A stretch of DNA of 64,000 nucleotides from Promethearchaeota archaeon (GTDB lineage: Archaea > Asgardarchaeota > Thorarchaeia > Thorarchaeales > Thorarchaeaceae), in assembly GCA_014728035.1 (NCBI GenBank), contig WJMJ01000059.1, forward strand, positions 288,001 through 352,000, given 5' to 3'. Below the pieces are notes generated by a model that was not told the DNA's origin, did no database searches, and worked only from the letters and a program-made list of their open reading frames with translations. The first letter of the stretch is position 1. Each line of letters opens with the position of its first letter. The position numbers and the translations under genes are program-made. Shown piece after piece: positions 6,574 to 58,804 of the stretch.

Positions 6574-7038
6574 TTACTCTTCAGGAATCTTTTCACGAAG
6601 TGTACGCCCCATCTGTCTGGCTCTTTCAGTTTCTCCCTCAATTAGGGGGCCTTTTCTTCCACTGACTTTGAAAGAAACACCATCTATGACTAGCGTAATC
6701 CCTGGAATTTTTTCCTTGATTGTCTTCTCAAGTTTCTTTGTTGCAATTCCTTCGTTTCCACCTGTATAGGTGTCGAATACAGCACCAAACTTGTTTTCAA
6801 GGCCGACAATTGATACTCTATCGATGTACTTCATTATGTTCAATGTTGGAGCTTGATTGTGGTTTGGTGAGCCAAAGAGAATGATGTCATAATCACACAG
6901 CTTGTCTGTGTGGATACCACCTGGATTTGCAAGTCTGACTTCGATATTTCCACTTTCTCTCAATCCATCTCGTATCTCTTCTGCAATCTGTCTAGTATTT
7001 CCGTATAGACTCTCATAAATAATCGCGACACGTTTCAT
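6574..7038 (-). CDS. Flavodoxin-domain protein
   Basis: IIYESLYGNT FMN-binding loop and GSP motif; start moved to MKRVAII. Confidence 0.85.
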   Translation of the reverse strand: MKRVAIIYESLYGNTRQIAEEIRDGLRESGNIEVRLANPGGIHTDKLCDYDIILFGSPNHNQAPTLNIMKYIDRVSIVGLENKFGAVFDTYTGGNEGIATKKLEKTIKEKIPGITLVIDGVSFKVSGRKGPLIEGETERARQMGRTLREKIPEE

Positions 7039-7229
7039 AAGATGAATTTGTATTCTCCTCTTATTTGCATTCCCCACTCGCAACTGGACTTGTGAAAATA
7101 AGTGATTCGTATGTTTGCATATGAAACATAATAGATATGCTATTAGCATAATTGTTCGTAAAAAACTGCGGACATCTGCATAGTGCTCAAAAGCGCCACA
7201 AAGTAGGTGAATCATTCGTTCTCGATCAT

Positions 7230-7712
7230 ATGACTGAGGTCTATGCTTATCTCGGAGATTTTAAGATGGCCCGAGACTGTTTTCTGGAGAGTATTGAGAT
7301 TAATGAACCAATTGGTCTTGAACCTGCAGATGTGTTATCCAGCTTATCTCGATTCTATGTGGGAATTGGAGATGGGGATTCAGTTTTGAAATATTCTACT
7401 CAAGCTATTGATTCTTTTCAGAGAATGAAGACTAAACATCCCATGGTATATTTTGATATGGCACGGGCACTTATTCTGAAAAAAAGATTTTGAAAAGGTA
7501 TTTGATTTTCTTGAAACCGGTACTGAGCTAACGTTCAAAATCAGATATTGGCGGATAAAGACACATATGAGGCACGAGTTCTCTTACGTCGCTTCATTGA
7601 TGAGTTTCAGAGTCTGATTGGCAATGCGTATGAGGATTGGTCCAGAGAGCAATCTAGTCTTCCTGTTATTGAAGAAATCTATCAACGGATTCTTACAAGT
7701 AGAGATCTTTGA
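7230..7712 (+). pseudogene. Degraded TPR-protein gene fragment
   Basis: TPR-like text (YAYLGDFKMARDCFLESIEI) stops after an A7 run at 7479-7485. It continues in another frame as KDFEKVFDFLETGTELTFK, then in the original frame to TGA at 7710-7712. Confidence 0.55.
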
Positions 7713-8240
7713 TTAACTCCACATATGCTTTGGATCGAATGGGTCTGCTGGGCTTAGCTCTTCGTCTCTATCTAAACCACCCATGTCATTCAAACGTAGC
7801 ACTGTAATTGGCTTTGTACCTGACAATAGTCTAGATTCTTTTGTCAAAAACATAAGCATGTGAGGGTGGTCTTCAAGAAATTCCCTGATCTGCTTGTCAA
7901 AATCTATCTTGATTATCAAGAATGAATATTCTGGAGTCAATGTTTCTGAATACCTTTTCATCCTATAGATATCTTGTAGCTGAGGTGCTTCATCAAGAAT
8001 TTCTACAAGTACTAGTCTAGCAGATGCAGAGGATAGTGGCTTCTGAATTTTAGCAAGTCCTACCATGTCAGGAAGACGTTCCCATGATTCGATTATTCTT
8101 GTGGCGTCATCTCCCACTTTATCCTTAACCACTTGGATAATTTCTTCTGATGCAATATATGTAGTGCATTCTCCTACTTGGCTGAAACATGTTTCTAGTT
8201 CAGTCCCAATTTGTTCCAGTTCCTTCGAGTCGGCGTTCAC
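7713..8240 (-). CDS. Hypothetical protein
   Basis: 175-aa ORF with normal composition and an upstream GAGGA SD-like sequence. Confidence 0.65.
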   Translation of the reverse strand: MNADSKELEQIGTELETCFSQVGECTTYIASEEIIQVVKDKVGDDATRIIESWERLPDMVGLAKIQKPLSSASARLVLVEILDEAPQLQDIYRMKRYSETLTPEYSFLIIKIDFDKQIREFLEDHPHMLMFLTKESRLLSGTKPITVLRLNDMGGLDRDEELSPADPFDPKHMWS

Positions 8241-8300
8241 GTGAATATCCTCATTAAATACTGTTTTTGAAATGATAAAAGGTCTATCGTTATCACTATT

Positions 8301-9122
8301 TCACGGTTTGAATCCCGTAACACCTAGTGTGTCATTTTTTCGTTGCACACGTTGAAATCCTACTTTGCGAAGTCTTGTCATTATGCCTTTTGGTAAATCT
8401 TTTTTCTTGTATCGAGATCCTGGAGAACCTACGTAATGATAAAGGACGCCTTTTGGTTTCATAACTCGATATAATTCTTCATAGAAGTCTTCTGTGTATA
8501 GCTCAGGTCCTAAAGTGAATCTGGGCGGGTCATGAAGTACTCCATTGAATCTCTTGTTCGAGAACATTTTGATTTTTTCTGAAGCATCTCCTATTATCAT
8601 CTCTACTCTTTCATCTTCAAATAGCCTTTGAGACCATGGATTAATTCTTGCTAATTCAATCACATCAGAATCTCTTTCGATTGTAGTTATGGTTGAAACA
8701 GCATTATCAAGACAGGCAATAGTTGAATACCCAAGACCTGTACAAATTTCAAGCATCTCCGAACCTTTTCTTGCACATAATTTAGCTTTCATTCTTGCAT
8801 CTTTCATCGGATCAATATCCTTTATCCGATGCATAAGAACACCATCTATCAACAAAGCTGGTGCTTTATTCTTTCCAGCTGGCATCAGTTTATAGAAACT
8901 CTTTCCCCGTATTGCTGCTTTGAACACGCCTTCCTCATTTATGAAGTAAACAGTATCGGGATCTTCAACAATTTTTCGCAACTTCGAAATATCCCATTTG
9001 TACTCTGCCAATCTAATTATGGACTCTGACAAACCTAAATCTATTGATATTTCTATTTCATTTTCTCCTCTTTTCAAACTTTGAAGGATAGTCTCTGCGG
9101 TATAAGAATCTAGGAATATCAT
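8301..9122 (-). CDS. Predicted archaeal SAM-dependent methyltransferase (spermidine synthase/MnmC-like fold)
   Basis: LEICTGLGYS motif I, TIE, GDA, HDPPRF and LY.EDFY; start uncertain (9122 or 9155). Confidence 0.8.
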   Translation of the reverse strand: MIFLDSYTAETILQSLKRGENEIEISIDLGLSESIIRLAEYKWDISKLRKIVEDPDTVYFINEEGVFKAAIRGKSFYKLMPAGKNKAPALLIDGVLMHRIKDIDPMKDARMKAKLCARKGSEMLEICTGLGYSTIACLDNAVSTITTIERDSDVIELARINPWSQRLFEDERVEMIIGDASEKIKMFSNKRFNGVLHDPPRFTLGPELYTEDFYEELYRVMKPKGVLYHYVGSPGSRYKKKDLPKGIMTRLRKVGFQRVQRKNDTLGVTGFKP

Positions 9123-9238
9123 GGGAACACAAATTGACAAAAATATCTCGCTCATTAAATCTTCGCAAAGAGCACTAGTACCACATTTTCAATGTAGTTA
9201 TATCTTGGATTTGTTTTTACATTCCAACGTGAACTAAT

Positions 9239-9634
9239 ATGGACCGTCCACAATACCATAGAATCATGTATCTAATTGCCGCTATTTGGAATTGGATTCT
9301 GGCTGTATCATTTCTAATATTACCTCGCATCAATATCAATAATTTCTACATTGCAGGAGATACAATTCCTCCAACACTTATCTGGTTTGACTGTTTCATG
9401 GGATTGGTTTTTGCCTTTGGAATTGGTTTCTACTTTGTTAGTCAAAGTGTATCTGATAACCATGGCTTAATTCAAGTAGCCGCGTTTGAGAAGACCTGGG
9501 TTTTTATCATCGGGCTGTACTACTTTCTACTTGCTCAGGCGTCAATATGGGTCTTGATTGTTGTTGTAGGTGATCTAATCTTTGGATTTCTTTTCATTGA
9601 GGATTTGTTTGCGATTAGAAAACTATCAACTTGA
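9239..9634 (+). CDS. Small integral membrane protein (about 4 TM)
   Basis: Hydrophobic segments; EK and D conserved-looking polar residues. Confidence 0.7.
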   Translation: MDRPQYHRIMYLIAAIWNWILAVSFLILPRININNFYIAGDTIPPTLIWFDCFMGLVFAFGIGFYFVSQSVSDNHGLIQVAAFEKTWVFIIGLYYFLLAQASIWVLIVVVGDLIFGFLFIEDLFAIRKLST

Positions 9635-18391: not shown

Positions 18392-18502
18392 ATGAAACGT
18401 ACTAGATTAGAAAACAAACAGGATTTCCGTACGATTCCTAAGTCATCACGCGACTTTTTGGATGTGTACGGAATTCACTCAACAAGGATTACAAGGAGGT
18501 AG
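18392..18502 (+). CDS. Putative 36-aa leader peptide/uORF (MKRTRLENKQDFRTIPKSSRDFLDVYGIHSTRITRR)
   Basis: ATG after a TTTATA box at 18351 and a GTGA SD-like element; terminal AGG AGG TAG forms the SD of the next gene. Confidence 0.45.
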   Translation: MKRTRLENKQDFRTIPKSSRDFLDVYGIHSTRITRR

Positions 18503-39994: not shown

Positions 39995-41281
39995 CTAACT
40001 GTTCATTTGTTCTAACTGTATCCATATGAGTTCAGCTAGACTTGTACCACCAAATTCTTCCATTTCCACTTCCCTACTCATATTCTCCCATGCATGATTT
40101 CCATAGATGAGTTTTAGCAATGCAACCTCGGTTTCATCATCCCCCTCAGAATACCGCCACAATTCAATACGATTATTGTTGCTGACTTGGACTGATGGTG
40201 TTTCTGAACAATTATTGGCATTTAACCAGAACTGAATCGAATAGTTAACTGACAGGTCAACTCTATCTGCCAAGAATCCCTTCTCTCCTTTTCCTCCCTC
40301 ATACAACACCTGTTCATCCAATACTCCATGAACATGAAGTATCGAAAGTGGATCAGACGGTTGTGGAATTACATACAGATCGCTGTCCTCTGTCATTCTT
40401 CCTCCTACACTTCCAGAAACGGGAGCTATTGCAGTCAGTATTTCTGAATGTTCAGCTGCAAATCGGTAGGTCATCATTGCTCCGTTGGAATGCCCTGTCA
40501 TGTAAATCTTTGATTGGTTTACCTTGTATGTTGCAATAAGATCCTGTATCAGATGATAAAGAAATGAAACATCACTAGCATTATTCTTGTACGCATATGC
40601 ATCAATATATCCTGAGTTCCATGTGTGGAATTGATATTCCATATCTCCTAACCCGTCTGGATATACTACTATGAATCCATATTCATCTGCAATTGTATCA
40701 AATCCATACGAGTTCTTCATACTCTTAGCATTGCCTCCTCCGCCATGAAGAGCTAAAAGTAATGGAATGTCACCCAGTTCGTTATAATTTTCTGGCAGAT
40801 GTAGGAGATACTGTCGTTGTGTTTCTCCAATGGTTATGTAGCTATAACCAGTAGACTGTGAACGAAGTGTTGCAAACAGTGGGAGTAAAATTAACAGACC
40901 AATTATGGAAATAGCAATCAAACGATTTCGTTTAAGTTTAGATTTATTCCCGTACATTATTAGAAAAGCGCCTATAATTCCAAGAATTGTGCCAAGGAAT
41001 ATCCCTGTACCAATCAATACTCCCCATATTGCTGAAAGAATAATGATGATTGGCCCCATCATACTCCATCTCGTAGATAGTATTGTACCTAATATCACAA
41101 GAATACCGAAAAGCATACCACCTATCGCTAGAATAATACCTGTAGATGGCATTATAGTGGCAAGTAATAGACCGAAATAGGTGAATCTTAGCCCATTGAG
41201 AAGGAGAAGGATACCTCCGACAATAGCAGTTATCCCTCCTAATCTGATGAATCGACTTGTTTCTTCAGAATTTACACTCAT
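39995..41281 (-). CDS. Membrane-anchored PHB-depolymerase/LpqC-like esterase
   Basis: N-terminal TMs; LHGGGG, VVYPDG, WN, GHSNGAMM nucleophile elbow and HG..D. Confidence 0.85.
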   Translation of the reverse strand: MSVNSEETSRFIRLGGITAIVGGILLLLNGLRFTYFGLLLATIMPSTGIILAIGGMLFGILVILGTILSTRWSMMGPIIIILSAIWGVLIGTGIFLGTILGIIGAFLIMYGNKSKLKRNRLIAISIIGLLILLPLFATLRSQSTGYSYITIGETQRQYLLHLPENYNELGDIPLLLALHGGGGNAKSMKNSYGFDTIADEYGFIVVYPDGLGDMEYQFHTWNSGYIDAYAYKNNASDVSFLYHLIQDLIATYKVNQSKIYMTGHSNGAMMTYRFAAEHSEILTAIAPVSGSVGGRMTEDSDLYVIPQPSDPLSILHVHGVLDEQVLYEGGKGEKGFLADRVDLSVNYSIQFWLNANNCSETPSVQVSNNNRIELWRYSEGDDETEVALLKLIYGNHAWENMSREVEMEEFGGTSLAELIWIQLEQMNS

Positions 41282-41333
41282 ATCTCCTGATCCTCTCTGA
41301 TATGAATAGGCGTTATGGATGATTAATACTCTG

Positions 41334-41774
41334 TTATTCGTTTTCAATAATTGGACGAATGCTGCTAGGTGTAGTCAATCCTCTAACCTCGACTATTCTG
41401 GCACCAAATCCACCAATTAATCCTGCAAATAACCATGTGAGATATGCTGTATCAAATCCAAACACAGATGAAATTGTAGATATGGAAAGTGCACTGAAAA
41501 CGATAACATCAGCAAAGAGTGTCAAGCCCGCAAACAACAAACCCGCAATCATTCCCTTTACAAGTGCACAGATTTGAAATTTTAGACTACATCCTCCCCC
41601 AACTAGATTTTTGTATATGATTGGAGCTGTCATTAGTACTAATATGATTGGAATCACCCACCGAAGCTGTATTAGTAGAGTGGATACTGAAGATAATACG
41701 ATGCTCAAAAAATAAATTGGAACCCAGTAGACGGGAACCCAAAACCATGTTCTAATCTCATCCAAGTAACTCAT
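41334..41774 (-). CDS. Hypothetical membrane protein
   Basis: About 4 TM helices. Confidence 0.7.
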   Translation of the reverse strand: MSYLDEIRTWFWVPVYWVPIYFLSIVLSSVSTLLIQLRWVIPIILVLMTAPIIYKNLVGGGCSLKFQICALVKGMIAGLLFAGLTLFADVIVFSALSISTISSVFGFDTAYLTWLFAGLIGGFGARIVEVRGLTTPSSIRPIIENE

Positions 41775-41837
41775 TCTCTTCACTGTAACAGTTTTCTTTT
41801 TTCTATTGATTACTTCTTGGGTATGGTCTCGTTTTAC

Positions 41838-41856
41838 TAGTCACAAATTGTGACTA
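41838..41856. promoter_or_regulatory. Perfect palindromic operator
   Basis: TAGTCACAA-A-TTGTGACTA, about 30 bp upstream of the TTATATA box at 41887. Confidence 0.6.
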
Positions 41857-41886
41857 CTTCCAGTGTCCTATAATCGTGGCTTTCCA

Positions 41887-41893
41887 TTATATA
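41887..41893 (+). promoter_or_regulatory. TATA box of the micro-ORF cassette
   Basis: TTATATA ending 31 nt upstream of the first ATG. Confidence 0.5.
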
Positions 41894-41924
41894 CTGATTC
41901 TGAGTAGTAATCTTGTGAACAATC

Positions 41925-42029
41925 ATGGCGTTAGCGATTAACTCCCGACCCAACTCAGAGACGAAGAACATCACCTGCAAGAAGCAGAGTACCAAGGCAC
42001 TCGCATATGCTTACACCTACCGGAGGTAG
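41925..42029 (+). CDS. Micro-ORF A, 34 aa (MALAINSRPNSETKNITCKKQSTKALAYAYTYRR)
   Basis: GTGA SD-like element; C/G-ending codons; paralogous to ORF B. Confidence 0.65.
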   Translation: MALAINSRPNSETKNITCKKQSTKALAYAYTYRR

Positions 42030-42035
42030 AACACA

Positions 42036-42119
42036 ATGGCGGTATCCAAGATTAAGATCATCAAGGCAACCAAAACTCCCTCAACCAAGGCTATCACTGA
42101 TGCCTACTTCAGGAGGTAA
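42036..42119 (+). CDS. Micro-ORF B, 27 aa (MAVSKIKIIKATKTPSTKAITDAYFRR)
   Basis: GGAGGT SD 8 nt upstream; shares STKA...AY..RR with ORF A. Confidence 0.7.
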   Translation: MAVSKIKIIKATKTPSTKAITDAYFRR

Positions 42120-42124
42120 TATCG

Positions 42125-42229
42125 ATGAAGCCTAGCGTTGAAGATATTCTATCAATTCCCACTCACCAAGACTCTAGCAAGAGCGGTGACCTAGCTACAA
42201 GCGAAGTGCTCGCGTTGGAAGCAACCTGA
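42125..42229 (+). CDS. Micro-ORF C, 34 aa (MKPSVEDILSIPTHQDSSKSGDLATSEVLALEAT)
   Basis: AGGAGGT SD 7 nt upstream, formed by the end of ORF B. Confidence 0.6.
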   Translation: MKPSVEDILSIPTHQDSSKSGDLATSEVLALEAT

Positions 42230-42411
42230 GCACACACTCTTTCAATTTACTCTATCCTTCGGACCTTATTCAATAGATATAATTCTGAATAGTGTATTAG
42301 AAAAGAGGTTGAATTGTTTATAATTAATTATTCCGACCAACTCATTGAAGAATTATTTTGGAAGTTGACTTATAAAATACAAATAGTTCAATGTAATGTG
42401 ATTCTCGAACA

Positions 42412-43134
42412 ATGCCCGATCAAGATAATCGCCCAATCGCATTGGATGTCTATGAAGAGATTGCAGAAAGCTATGCTGCAAAGGTGGATACCAAAGCGCA
42501 TAACGCATTTATCGACTGGCCTGCAGTAACATCTTTACTTCCAAATCTGAACGACATTCTCGTATTAGATGTTGGTTCTGGGCCTGGAAGATATGCTGAA
42601 TATCTCCTTGAAAATAGTGCAAAAGTAGTAAGCATTGATGTAAGCTCTAATATGCTCAGGTTGGCACGTAGAAGAGTAAGGGAGCAGTCAAATTTCATCA
42701 GAGCTGATATCGAGTATAATCTTCCGTTCTTGAATTCAGATATCTTTGACTTGGTTCTTTGCCCCTTGGTTCTTGACTATATTTATGACTGGCATAAGAC
42801 GTTCAGAAGATTTTCCGAACTTCTGAAAAAAGACGGGCTATTGATTTTTTCTGCTGGACATCCATTTGATAAAGCATTCATTCGTTCTAAGCGTGAATAC
42901 TTCTTGGTCAAAAGAATGGAATATCCCTGGAGTGGTTTTGGAAAGCGTGTTATGATGCAATATTACCATCGTCCTTTGTCTGACATGATTGGTGCACTTC
43001 ACAGCTCTGGGTTTATTATTGAAGAGCTTCTCGAACCACGACCTATTAAGGAATGCAAGCAAATGGACCCTGAAACATACGAAGAGTCTAATTCATGGCC
43101 GAGTTTTATCTGCATCAAAGCACGTAACAGTTGA
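42412..43134 (+). CDS. Class I SAM-dependent methyltransferase
   Basis: VLDVGSGPG, IDVS, AD, FDLV and HP; YYHRPLS and EP.P. Confidence 0.9.
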   Translation: MPDQDNRPIALDVYEEIAESYAAKVDTKAHNAFIDWPAVTSLLPNLNDILVLDVGSGPGRYAEYLLENSAKVVSIDVSSNMLRLARRRVREQSNFIRADIEYNLPFLNSDIFDLVLCPLVLDYIYDWHKTFRRFSELLKKDGLLIFSAGHPFDKAFIRSKREYFLVKRMEYPWSGFGKRVMMQYYHRPLSDMIGALHSSGFIIEELLEPRPIKECKQMDPETYEESNSWPSFICIKARNS

Positions 43135-56244: not shown

Positions 56245-57042
56245 TCATTTTTCATACATATCAACCTCCAGCACTTCTGCATGTGTATATGCTCTCCTGA
56301 AGTAGAATACTGCTACAGCGAGAAATACAACTCCTATAACTGACATTACCAATGCTTCTATTGAAGGAATTACAAGTGGCCCCGAGTATGATAGAGCAAT
56401 AATGAGAATGGCTAGAACAAAACCTGTTACTGAGGCGATTGTTACCGCAAGGAAGTTATTCCTATTTGGCGAGCGTATCAAAAACCAGTCTGGTTGAAGA
56501 AAGATTATTGCTGAAATACCAACTTTTAGTCTTCTAATCATTCTTCCCACCTTAATCATGGATCTTCCCAAAACTAGAATGCTAATTGTGGCGACGATTG
56601 CTCCGATTTGCCATCCAAAAACATTCTCACTGATTGAAATTCCAATGATGATGAGACTGAAAATCACTCCCATAAATCCAAAAACGAGACCCATTTGATT
56701 CATATAAAGGCTGACTTCTTGTTTTGGACTCATGGATAATACTGCGGATAAGACACCGTATTTGTCAATCTTTCTTTCTTCTTCTACCTGGTCTAGCAAA
56801 ATCATTGCTTTTTTCCCAAGTTCAGATATTCTGTATTCTTCTCCTGTCTTCTTAATCAATCCTACTTCAGTCAGCTCTTTAAGATGATAATTGAACTTCC
56901 CACTCATTAGATATGGATCAAGCCCCAATACCTTCATTATCTCTGAATATGTTGCTGAGCCCTTTCGTGCAATCTGTCGCATGATTGATCTGCGTGTCGA
57001 ATTAGACAGTGCTTTCAACACATCTTCGGAATCCGCATTCAT
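56245..57042 (-). CDS. ArsR-type wHTH regulator with C-terminal TM helices
   Basis: KALSNSTRRSI, SGKFNYHLKEL and Y.IS.LG; about 4 TMs. Confidence 0.85.
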   Translation of the reverse strand: MNADSEDVLKALSNSTRRSIMRQIARKGSATYSEIMKVLGLDPYLMSGKFNYHLKELTEVGLIKKTGEEYRISELGKKAMILLDQVEEERKIDKYGVLSAVLSMSPKQEVSLYMNQMGLVFGFMGVIFSLIIIGISISENVFGWQIGAIVATISILVLGRSMIKVGRMIRRLKVGISAIIFLQPDWFLIRSPNRNNFLAVTIASVTGFVLAILIIALSYSGPLVIPSIEALVMSVIGVVFLAVAVFYFRRAYTHAEVLEVDMYEK

Positions 57043-57139: not shown

Positions 57140-57352
57140 ATCTGATTTTCTTCTACCAATACAATTCTCGTGTTTTTGTAATGTCATAGAATTTGAAATC
57201 CCACATCTCATTTCTATGTGATATATTGCGCAGATAGAAGCAACCATTCCTTTATTTACATCCTACTATCTTGTCCATAGTAACAAATTGAGTCCATTAG
57301 TTGTGGCTATCGATTATATATTCATTGGACACAAAAGATATGGTGACTATCA

Positions 57353-58804
57353 ATGAGCCTGACAGCTAGATTCTTTGGATTTGAAAATCCAACCGAGCAG
57401 GGTCTAAAACTTGCAAAGACAATGGCATCTCTTGTCCCTGTGTTCTCTATGACTTTCCAAATCAGTACAACATTCTATATGTTATTTATTGCTGAAGCAT
57501 TAGGTGATGGTGATGCAGTTAAAGGAATGGCAATTGTAGGTGGTCTTGTTGCACTCCAATTCATTGTCCAAGTAATTCTTGACTATCCCACTGGCGCAGT
57601 CGGTGATTGGGTCGGACAAAGATATGTCATTATGTCAGCTCTGTTATGTTATGCCGTGGTGTTTTTCCTCACCTCACAACTCACTCCAGACCCTCCGCTA
57701 ATACTTCCCATTCTTATCTATGCTCTCTTCGGACTCGGAATCTCTCAGGAAAGTGGAGCTTGGGGAGCTTGGTTCGATAACAACTATCGTGTTGCTATGC
57801 CTCATGATACCAAACGTGAAGAATACGGTGTATTCTCCGGAAAGCTTGGCATGATTTCGCAGATATCGGCAACAGCAGTTCTCGTTCCTGGAAGTTGGAT
57901 TGCTCTCTATCTTGGTCGAGCTTGGGTATTTCAATTGCAAGCTTTACTGTTCATTGTTTTAGCTATACTTGTTCATAGATATGTACGTGACCTTCCTGAA
58001 GTAGAGGAACAACGCTCCGAACGTCCAGAAATGGGTGATTATGTCGGACTACTAAAGGATGGTGTCCGGTTTATCTGGTCAAGTAAGTTTTTCCTGTTAC
58101 TATTCATTGGTGAGATGATCTTTTTCAGTGTTGGGCCTGTCTGGGGTAATCTAATACTCTGGCCATTCTACAATGTGTACCTTCAGAGTGATGTTGCAAT
58201 CTCAACATTTCGTACTCTTATGTTTCTCCCACTCGCTATGACAAATGAACGAAGTGGAATTATTGCAAAGAAATATGAACCAAATACATGGATTCCTCGT
58301 TTTCGCTTATTTGCTTTCAATGGTGCAGCATTCTATTTCTTGCTGTCGATGATGTTCTTTATTGTTCCGCCACCTCCAATGGGCACTACAGCAACCGTTC
58401 AGTTGGTTATACCTTTCATCAATCTCCCTCTATTCGTGCTTCCTATAGCATCAGTAATACCTATCCTAATGATATTCATAATTTTCTTAATCACCTCCTT
58501 GTTTGGATCTGTTGGTGGTATTCTTACAAATCGAGTACTGCTTGATGTAGTACCAAATAAAATAAGAAATGGCATGTACTCACTTCGTGCAACATCATTT
58601 ACTGCAGCATCTATACCACTGCTAGTCTTCTTTGGATGGCTGGTACCATCTTTTGGTTTCTCACTAGCTTTCCTTCTAATGGGCATCATCTCAACAGTTG
58701 GAGTTGTCTTGATTGCTATGAGTTTTAAACAGGATATTCCAAAAGCAGGAGATATTGAGATTGAAGCAGTAGAATCAGAAGAAGTACTTGAAGAGATAAC
58801 TTAG
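57353..58804 (+). CDS. MFS transporter
   Basis: DYPTGAVGDWVGQR motif A; SGA..AW; about 12 TM. Confidence 0.85.
   Translation: MSLTARFFGFENPTEQGLKLAKTMASLVPVFSMTFQISTTFYMLFIAEALGDGDAVKGMAIVGGLVALQFIVQVILDYPTGAVGDWVGQRYVIMSALLCYAVVFFLTSQLTPDPPLILPILIYALFGLGISQESGAWGAWFDNNYRVAMPHDTKREEYGVFSGKLGMISQISATAVLVPGSWIALYLGRAWVFQLQALLFIVLAILVHRYVRDLPEVEEQRSERPEMGDYVGLLKDGVRFIWSSKFFLLLFIGEMIFFSVGPVWGNLILWPFYNVYLQSDVAISTFRTLMFLPLAMTNERSGIIAKKYEPNTWIPRFRLFAFNGAAFYFLLSMMFFIVPPPPMGTTATVQLVIPFINLPLFVLPIASVIPILMIFIIFLITSLFGSVGGILTNRVLLDVVPNKIRNGMYSLRATSFTAASIPLLVFFGWLVPSFGFSLAFLLMGIISTVGVVLIAMSFKQDIPKAGDIEIEAVESEEVLEEIT

Follow-up and report, generated by a model that had tools for sequence, protein, structure and literature searches.

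Introduction

Several described systems resemble, each in part, a compact unit of three very small open reading frames (ORFs), here termed A, B and C, in the genome of an uncultured thorarchaeon (Promethearchaeota archaeon, family Thorarchaeaceae; assembly GCA_014728035.1). The unit lies in a stretch of 64,000 nucleotides (nt) of contig WJMJ01000059.1 (positions 288,001 to 352,000 of the forward strand), called the window in what follows, and all unit and promoter coordinates are positions in that window. Judged by comparison with related genomes, it is one copy of a lineage-specific, multicopy unit for three predicted soluble micro-proteins, two of them basic paralogs (A and B) and the third (C) acidic, whose palindromic operator also precedes genes for a transporter of the major facilitator superfamily (MFS) and a cytoskeletal, bactofilin-domain protein. 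The peptides match no described family, and the systems to which they can be compared are bacterial.

One comparison is with the leaderless multi-peptide bacteriocin operons of Firmicutes, such as those for aureocin A70, garvicin KS and enterocin L50. There, as here, two to four tandem genes in a compact operon encode cationic paralogs of about 30 residues that lack a leader, often with a transporter nearby, and small cationic tandem leaderless peptides are indeed what is found at the present locus (A and B have 27-37 amino acids (aa) and an isoelectric point (pI) of about 10.3-10.6). However, the bacteriocins are hydrophobic or amphipathic helix bundles that come with ATP-binding cassette (ABC) exporters and immunity genes, whereas the present unit has hydrophilic A and B, an acidic third peptide and, in the linked form, a transporter of the MFS type; most of its copies are alone, and there is no sequence similarity. 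In place of a membrane-inserting amphipathic or hydrophobic helix the model of A has one 11-residue helix only, secondary structure being assigned to none of the remainder, and no ABC exporter or immunity genes were found at the locus, the neighbours of the stand-alone copies being unrelated housekeeping genes. A similar case is that of the psm-alpha and psm-beta operons of Staphylococcus aureus, with their phenol-soluble modulins (PSMs), Pmt exporter and direct control by AgrA. Shared with these are tiny leaderless tandem genes, signs of very high expression, one regulator that also acts over other loci and a tie to a transporter. PSMs are, however, amphipathic surfactant helices with ABC export; the peptides here are without amphipathic or hydrophobic character, and where an amphipathic helix over most of the peptide was looked for, a hydrophilic chain with disordered N-terminal two-thirds was seen instead.

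A different type of parallel is offered by the alpha/beta-type small acid-soluble protein (SASP) multigene family of Bacillus and Clostridium, in which small, abundant, condition-induced soluble proteins are encoded by scattered copies, each with its own promoter and terminator. SASPs have 60-75 residues, are monocistronic, constitute a Pfam family and bind DNA, whereas the present peptides are half that size (27-34 aa) and tricistronic, have an acidic third member, and gave no match in a Pfam search with A, B and C at E-values up to 10, the SASP profile (PF00269) included. Small proteins that modulate transporters in Escherichia coli (AcrZ with AcrAB, MntS with MntP, SgrT with PtsG) are also pertinent, being encoded apart from or beside the transporter gene and governed by the same regulator. 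Each of these has a single gene copy that is not optimised for expression, and AcrZ sits in the membrane, whereas four to six copies per genome and extreme codon bias here suggest amounts far above transporter stoichiometry. Lastly, leader or arrest peptides upstream of transporter or resistance genes (TnaC-tnaAB, SpeFL-speF-potE, and the tet(L) and bmrB leaders) have in common with the present unit short ORFs, conserved C-terminal residues at the stop codon, a stop at the next ribosome-binding site and, for the linked form described below, a transporter gene downstream. Leaders are single-copy and always in cis to the regulated gene, whereas most units here are free-standing with their own predicted terminator, have conserved N-termini and form chains of two to four.

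Three chained coding frames

The gap between called genes that houses A, B and C extends from 41784 to 42411 (about 630 base pairs (bp)); it is flanked by a minus-strand ORF for a membrane protein that starts at 41783 and by a methyltransferase gene that starts at 42412. An earlier note on this stretch had placed three tandem ORFs in that gap, and they stand exactly where it put them. The features of the unit are the following.

41838-41856, no strand: operator palindrome with a GTCAC-N5-GTGAC core, 19 bp, with 9-bp arms and one central base
41857-41886, plus strand: spacer with extra GTGAC-like half-sites at a period of about 13 nt and, ahead of the TATA box, a stretch like a transcription factor B recognition element (BRE)
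41887-41893, plus strand: TATA box, TTATATA, 38-39 nt ahead of the ATG of A
41925-42029, plus strand: ORF A, 34 aa, basic, pI about 10
42022-42027, plus strand: predicted Shine-Dalgarno (SD) sequence for B, GGAGGT, within the final codons and stop codon of A
42036-42119, plus strand: ORF B, 27 aa, a basic paralog of A with the C-terminal motif YFRR
42111-42117, plus strand: predicted SD sequence for C, AGGAGGT, within the final codons and stop codon of B
42125-42229, plus strand: ORF C, 34 aa, acidic; the N-terminal part varies, and the C-terminal helix motif EVLALEAT is conserved
42206-42233, plus strand: RNA hairpin of 7 + 4 bp with a GAAG loop, formed by the stop codon of C, the 7 codons ahead of it and 4 nt beyond it
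42236-42250, plus strand: T-rich tract 3' of the hairpin, T-rich in all copies, at the 3' boundary of the unit

Several types of comparison bear on the coding status of these frames, which can be taken as established from the alignments: A, B and C are almost certainly genuine protein-coding genes. Variable sites fall mostly at third codon positions (first, second and third positions, respectively: 7, 9 and 18 in A; 2, 3 and 15 in B; 6, 7 and 14 in C). Between the two species compared, that of the window and a congener (a second species of the same genus), the ratio of nonsynonymous to synonymous substitution rates (dN/dS) is 0.39 for A, 0.12 for B and 0.26 for C, against 0.76-3.2 when the same ORF windows are shifted by one or two bases. 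All three ORFs are, by these measures, under purifying selection. In an alignment of nine close copies the indels within ORFs come in whole codons, of 6 nt in A and of 3 nt in C, the sole 1-nt indel sits in the A-B spacer, and stop codons swap among TAG, TAA and TGA with the frame intact.

Retention of the frames extends well beyond close copies. At the level of the family the A/B/C architecture recurs in some 75 cassettes read, in which the peptide motifs survive many synonymous changes; in A these are an N-terminus of the MALA type, aromatic residues, a core that reads Ser-Thr-x-Ala-(Leu/Ile) and an Arg at the end. A profile built on peptide A matches 70 of the 76 genomes of the window's family, with 1-11 matches each and more than 360 in all, nearly all of them intact frames of 34-38 codons, and finds nothing in 224 genomes from 29 other families of the phylum. 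That the frames are selected for translation, and that their conservation in relatives should reveal it, had been put forward from the window alone; the third-position excess, the lack of frame-breaking indels, dN/dS of 0.12-0.39 and, in profile searches across genomes, the retention of the frame in 70 of them agree with that expectation. Among 1.84 billion protein representatives there are 33 matches, mostly of 29-46 residues, and the entries looked up are unnamed or hypothetical. Annotation misses the operon in this genome and elsewhere, where genes are called, usually has peptide A alone. The ESM Atlas gave no usable match to the peptides, and a literature search found nothing on small proteins of Thorarchaeota or Asgard archaea.

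The paralogy of A and B, proposed at the DNA and protein levels, is borne out at both: direct repeats (D1, D2 and D5) have 73-83% identity, and each profile matches the other peptide (the B profile against A with E = 4e-4). The same holds for the junctions. The end of A, CGG AGG TAG, and the end of B, AGG AGG TAA, both spell GGAGGT (at 42022-42027 and 42112-42117), which precedes the next ATG by 8 nt at A-B and by 7 nt at B-C, and the 3' end of the 16S ribosomal RNA of this genome, which reads ...GATCACCTCCT, is complementary to GGAGGT. The predicted SD sites of the two junctions are near-perfect against this tail. (The 16S gene is incomplete in the assembly: a contig end (L138:1-140, contig C92 of G000) carries no more than its final 125 nt or so, from which the anti-SD tail can be read.)

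Of the proposed chaining by Arg-Arg-stop and SD overlap, the description fits the copy in the window and does not extend to all others. In other genera A ends in Val-Arg or Leu-Arg by way of GAGGTGA, an SD sequence with the stop codon inside. Since the residues at the end vary in company with GAGGTGA ends, the terminal Arg is best read as the in-frame translation of an SD sequence and not as a peptide motif. Small ORFs that end in Arg-Arg-stop within an SD sequence are, in a genome-wide scan, scattered and chance-like outside the cassettes. One such ORF in the window, at 18392-18502 (36 codons), has its Arg-Arg-stop within AGGAGGTAG, just ahead of the next gene, and it matches none of the A, B and C profiles.

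A and B are in one frame in this genome, and an A-B fusion through read-through of the TAG, with or without pyrrolysine, was considered as a candidate. The stop codon of B is TAA, TGA or TAG according to the copy, the A-B junction shows swaps of TAG and TAA, and in three of the five congener copies the spacer has lost 1 nt and TAG is replaced by TAA. Because the A-B spacer carries a 1-nt indel, fusion by read-through is ruled out.

Copies and concerted evolution

The earlier note treated the cassette as a single locus, and it is here, as in its silence on the hairpin that spans the stop codon and on the link to an MFS and bactofilin regulon, that its description falls short: the three ORFs are present as it had them, but the unit (41838-42242, 405 bp) is not unique. 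A DNA search finds three further copies at 88-96% identity in the same assembly, giving four close copies, the genome of the congener has five, and most genomes of the same family have several partial matches that cover the promoter end and the 3' end. Across the nine close copies identity starts exactly at the palindrome, a sharp 5' boundary of the conserved unit, and stops a few bases past the stop codon of C (at about 42242), the flanks being unrelated. The copy number can be regarded as established by these matches.

Four of the copy sites are orthologous between the two species, as judged by flank similarity. Paralogs within a genome (87-98% identical) are more alike than orthologs (81-84%); the copies are therefore old, fixed in place and homogenised by gene conversion, and are not recent transpositions. 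Concerted evolution of the copies within a genome is thus indicated, and on these identities we regard it as established. A miniature inverted-repeat transposable element, or an element derived from IS200/IS605, was considered and rejected: the 3' end has no counterpart to the palindrome of the 5' end, neither terminal inverted repeats nor target duplications were found, and the four orthologous sites are contrary to the variable insertion sites that such a reading entails. Two pattern scans of viral contigs found no cassette.

A six-frame profile search adds two units in this genome, one a decayed one-peptide unit ahead of an MFS gene on contig C8, and the other the following divergent complete cassette.

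Contig C25 of G000, 274113-274432: divergent cassette L092, complete A-B-C, about 14 kb before the start of the window

The operator of L092 differs, being a palindromic GGTTTG-N4-6-CAAACC, and the start of its first ORF is SD-led. This operator type also precedes a unit with A only, ahead of an MFS gene, in another genus (L094). Variation of another sort is seen in some cassettes of other genera (L035, L050-L052, L055, L056, L084, L085, L087), where a module of about 130 nt follows A. It consists of three direct and one inverted GGTCAC half-sites and a weak TATA-like box at promoter spacing, and then comes a second pair, A'-B; it looks like an internal, operator-controlled second promoter.

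Promoter and expression design

For the palindrome at 41838-41856, 0.01 chance matches would be expected in the window. Of 40 further cassettes, 35 have the TATA box 39 nt upstream of the start codon of A, and the spacer at 41857-41886 is kept across genera in cassette promoters. With the usual archaeal distance from TATA box to transcription start, the position of the box implies a leader of about 10 nt. The predicted layout is the classic archaeal one, with a short-leader first cistron followed by SD-led downstream cistrons. Both the TTATATA box and the perfect 19-bp palindrome had been pointed out before, and the wider proposal made with them, a regulated and translationally coupled operon for two basic paralogs and one acidic peptide, gains support from SD sequences complementary to the 16S tail, the fixed distance from TATA box to ATG and the sharing of the operator. 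A scan for sigma-70 promoters and intrinsic terminators is uninformative for an archaeon.

Codon usage is also telling. The GC content at third codon positions (GC3) is 0.62-0.63 in the peptide ORFs, whereas the long ORFs of the genome have a median of 0.31 and a 99th percentile of 0.48, and EF-1alpha has 0.42; the regulon partners of the unit are ordinary in this respect (0.30-0.32). The unit as a whole is a GC island (47-50% GC, with flanks of about 38%). Over the four close copies AAG is used over AAA 42:1, AAC over AAT 12:0 and TAC over TAT 13:1, while GAA and GCT or GCA are still preferred. The strong bias to C- and G-ending codons that had been noticed by eye is accordingly real, and extreme (GC3 of 0.62 against the genome median of 0.31). 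As it is codon-specific and confined to the peptide ORFs, it is better explained by selection for very high translation than by a general GC drive. By this measure, the expression design is stronger than that of EF-1alpha, and the peptides would be very abundant.

The terminal hairpin

At the 3' end of the unit, nucleotide conservation exceeds that expected from coding alone. The hairpin there has a folding free energy of -15.7 kcal/mol (z -2.1). Covariation was read in 35 distinct cassettes registered on the stop codon, with the structure taken from the reference copy, so that the result leans towards that reference: pairing is seen in 82% of cells, compared with 29-48% if the partner is displaced by 1-3 columns, and 13 cells are changed on both sides, a count reached in none of 500 shuffles. 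The column pair 9-32, for instance, shows GC, GU, AU and UA. Compensatory cases in these alignments are clear despite the reference-derived structure, and the hairpin can be counted as a covarying one on this ground. The divergent copy L092 has a fully compensated 9-bp stem, with its peptide end altered accordingly, and in a few genera a different hairpin is rebuilt around the stop codon.

The T-rich tract that follows is the probable transcription stop, and the hairpin would have a role in forming or protecting the 3' end. A terminating ribosome must melt the hairpin, and for this reason a translation-sensitive function is possible. The fold of the whole transcript is not unusually stable (z = -1.14), and an Rfam search of 41000-43000 at a permissive threshold gave chance-level matches only (best E-value 0.85, none at the gathering score). 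A structured non-coding RNA with covarying stems had been named beforehand as what would overturn the coding proposal; structure is seen in the terminal hairpin alone.

Properties of the peptides

A and B are strongly hydrophilic and basic (grand average of hydropathy (GRAVY) means of -0.83 and -0.74, pI about 10.3 and 10.6, net charge of about +5.5 for each in the window copy); C is acidic (mean GRAVY -0.55, pI about 4.3-4.6, net charge about -4.4 in the window copy). None of the three has a hydrophobic segment. The length of A and B ranges over 26-37 residues, and their highest 11-residue hydrophobic moment is at most 0.43, with no hydrophobic face. AlphaFold2 models made with family alignments give A and C a disordered N-terminal two-thirds followed by one C-terminal helix (residues 23-33 in A and 25-32 in C), with a predicted local distance difference test score of about 80 in the helix and 65-68 overall; B would, by paralogy, fold similarly. 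Joint structure prediction of A, B and C scored 0.02, which lends no support to a complex and is not evidence either way.

The operator and its other genes

A scan of this genome for the palindrome core, with up to two mismatches allowed, finds the operator ahead of cassettes and of three other genes: the MFS gene behind the decayed cassette on contig C8, a gene for a 290-aa membrane protein and one for a 411-aa bactofilin-domain protein (PF04519). In 6 genomes from 5 genera the palindrome is retained upstream of the bactofilin ortholog, together with the TATA box and a second half-site. On these occurrences the operator is established as a shared one. A palindrome with one mismatch is also seen about 260 nt upstream of a divergent gene for a 250-aa protein (L006; contig C44 of G000, 175600-178642), which, by eye only, looks to be of the ESCRT-II winged-helix type, as does its 154-aa neighbour.

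The MFS family in question is found in 67 of 81 genomes of the family, with 1-7 copies each, and searches of NCBIfam and of PDB sequences with it found no relative. Among the 30 best MFS loci, about 20 have one to three ORFs of the A/B type, and no C, at 140-1000 nt upstream on the same strand. A pattern search detected the palindrome at about a third of these 30 loci, and most MFS loci with peptide ORFs have a TATA box at promoter spacing, with arrays of GGTCAC/GTGACC half-sites between. These linked units thus have a TATA-like box and a half-site array of their own between the peptide genes and the MFS gene. Two genera (g5 and g16) are largely without peptide A, and the same two are largely without the MFS family. 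The window itself contains a member.

57353-58804, plus strand (57279-58804 with its promoter): MFS paralog, the promoter homologous to the cassette promoter and its palindrome decayed

Ahead of it lies a stretch homologous to the spacer at 41857-41886. Divergent from it, at 56245-57042 on the minus strand, is a gene for an ArsR/HTH_20 winged-helix protein (also DUF7347) with C-terminal membrane segments. This protein was considered as a candidate regulator and is a local one at most, as it was not found at other MFS or cassette loci.

A second family (f12) has the same MFS subfamily in all of its 19 genomes and the same operator type at the MFS promoter in 4 of 10 loci read, with no peptide ORFs at the MFS loci and no finds by the A profile. 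The link between operator and MFS gene would therefore be the older one, the peptides having been added in the family of the window. Several of the f12 loci (L126-L135) keep a further conserved unit upstream of the MFS promoter, namely a TATA-like box followed by a short inverted repeat around GAGA/TCTC, and two of them (L126 and L127) also have a divergent gene of the ArsR winged helix-turn-helix type.

Genomic neighbours of the copies

The neighbours of stand-alone copies are mutually unrelated (a PolX-type polymerase, an EamA transporter, URO-D), and a comparison across copies found no conserved functional partner. The window copy has a methyltransferase and a CPBP protease beside it, which no other copy has and which are therefore not a conserved maturation system.

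Some copies are close to genes for stable RNAs. A gene for RNase P RNA, convergent to a cassette, ends 15 nt from the 3' end of the latter (L002:1153-1486, contig C151 of G000; also L020), and the congener shows the same arrangement at its orthologous site. Convergent to other copies are tRNA genes 108-111 nt long, which probably contain introns and are found by Rfam but missed by ARAGORN; ARAGORN reported no tRNA in the window, a result to be read with its failure on the intron-bearing tRNAs beside other copies. An EF-1alpha-type gene follows one copy at a distance of 0.8 kb, both on the same strand (L088:237-644 and 1477-2811; contig C25 of G000, 6940-9514), and an unannotated ORF of 192 aa lies between the two.

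Possible functions

On balance, the peptides are probably abundant, soluble and trans-acting, and work within the regulon of the MFS transporter and bactofilin-domain protein. A transcription factor would read the GTCAC-N5-GTGAC palindrome and the half-sites downstream of it, upstream of a strong BRE/TATA promoter, and the mRNA would begin about 10 nt ahead of ORF A. Ribosomes ending A, and then B, would meet an SD sequence overlapping the last codons and stop codon just decoded, with B and C being translated as a coupled chain. The transcript would close with the hairpin formed by the codons and stop codon of C, followed by the T-tract, the hairpin probably defining or protecting the 3' end. 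The peptides would most likely act in trans and in large amounts, their regulon being shared with a lineage-specific MFS family and a bactofilin-domain protein.

Several considerations weigh on the other side. Judged from the second family, where operator and MFS occur with no peptide, the transporter does not need the peptides. The joint absence of peptide A and MFS from g5 and g16 perhaps represents, given their kinship, two independent losses. Among the sequencing runs listed for the stretch none is of RNA, and the two DNA runs cover only a small share of it. The high GC3 could partly reflect constraints at the mRNA level or biased gene conversion, though the codon-specific pattern argues against a simple GC drive.

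The peptides might instead constitute an exported leaderless multi-peptide archaeocin, surfactant or signal, for which the co-regulated MFS protein would be the exporter or immunity pump. This is possible but unlikely. The small cationic tandem paralogs have neither signal peptide nor leader, nor a hydrophobic N-terminal segment; many copies with extreme expression signals suggest stoichiometric consumption; in many genera A/B genes are directly upstream of the MFS gene and under the same switch; and copies have diverged in their peptide sets and in the N-terminal part of C. However, the hydrophilicity of A and B (GRAVY -0.8 and -0.7) and a hydrophobic moment of at most 0.43 are out of keeping with this, most copies are alone and far from any transporter, neither an ABC transporter nor an immunity gene is a conserved neighbour, and the MFS family is present without the peptides in f12. 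MFS pumps, moreover, usually carry small solutes. It is doubtful that this is the first leaderless, mass-produced, secreted multi-peptide system of Asgard archaea, with an MFS exporter and one factor switching both peptides and exporter together with a bactofilin scaffold.

A cis-acting role is improbable. A and B would then be leader or arrest peptides, a pause at the Arg-stop, with the whole chain of 27-37 residues still in the exit tunnel, gating translation of C or of the MFS gene in response to a small molecule. The last 12 residues, beside the stop codon, are the most conserved, length is tightly held (26-37 residues), each stop codon overlaps the next ribosome-binding site, and ORFs of the A/B type are ahead of a transporter gene in many genomes. 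Yet the MALA-type N-terminus is conserved too, stand-alone units end in a predicted terminator and so leave only C to regulate, and in linked units a TATA-like box with a half-site array stands at promoter spacing ahead of the MFS gene or of a second peptide pair. The number of copies, their concerted evolution and a GC3 above that of EF-1alpha also point to a demand for product and not to a sensor.

Less probable again is that the peptides are sacrificial precursors of a small modified product, either a ribosomally synthesized and post-translationally modified peptide (RiPP) or a peptide-derived cofactor, made in bulk because only one molecule would come from each chain, the product being exported by the MFS protein. 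Invariant Tyr, Ser-Thr and Ala positions in A and B would suit modification, C has a 'follower-like' conserved C-terminal motif beside its variable N-terminal part, and a multicopy unit of high-expression design that is linked to an MFS transporter is what such precursors could call for. However, among neighbouring genes, no radical-SAM, YcaO, lanthipeptide synthetase, ATP-grasp or protease gene recurs beside the copies, and the methyltransferase and CPBP protease of the window copy do not accompany the others; a RiPP role is weakened because no modifying enzyme is a conserved neighbour. Of the candidate roles listed in the earlier note, namely RiPP-like precursors, signalling or antimicrobial peptides and ribosome-stalling peptides, none was confirmed.

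A non-coding nature, as a structured RNA or a miniature mobile element with incidental ORFs, is very improbable and contradicted by the data: the sharp boundaries of several copies, the palindrome at one end, the conserved covarying 3' hairpin and the GC-rich island would suit it, but codon-position pattern and dN/dS fit coding in the named frames only, hundreds of frames are intact across genera, the whole fold has z = -1.1 with no Rfam match, orthologous sites occur in two species with neither terminal inverted repeats nor target duplications, and the viral contigs scanned contain none.

Significance

No part of archaeal genomes is less charted than the small proteins, and work on Asgard archaea has dealt mainly with their large eukaryote-like proteins. 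What emerges is a micro-protein family with unusually strong computational support, there being hundreds of intact copies in one Asgard family, and the hairpin made from last codons and stop codon neatly illustrates how coding and RNA structure can constrain the same bases. The regulon of operator, MFS and bactofilin-domain protein has, to our knowledge, been described by nobody, and it is a concrete handle on gene regulation in uncultured Thorarchaeota. Were the peptides secreted as a system, they would represent a programme, based on peptides, at the level of cell-cell contact or the cell envelope in the prokaryotes most closely related to eukaryotes; should they be secreted, modulate a transporter or bind nucleic acid, a new functional class would be added. 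Even as no more than marks of a stress regulon, they would be useful expression markers for metatranscriptomics.

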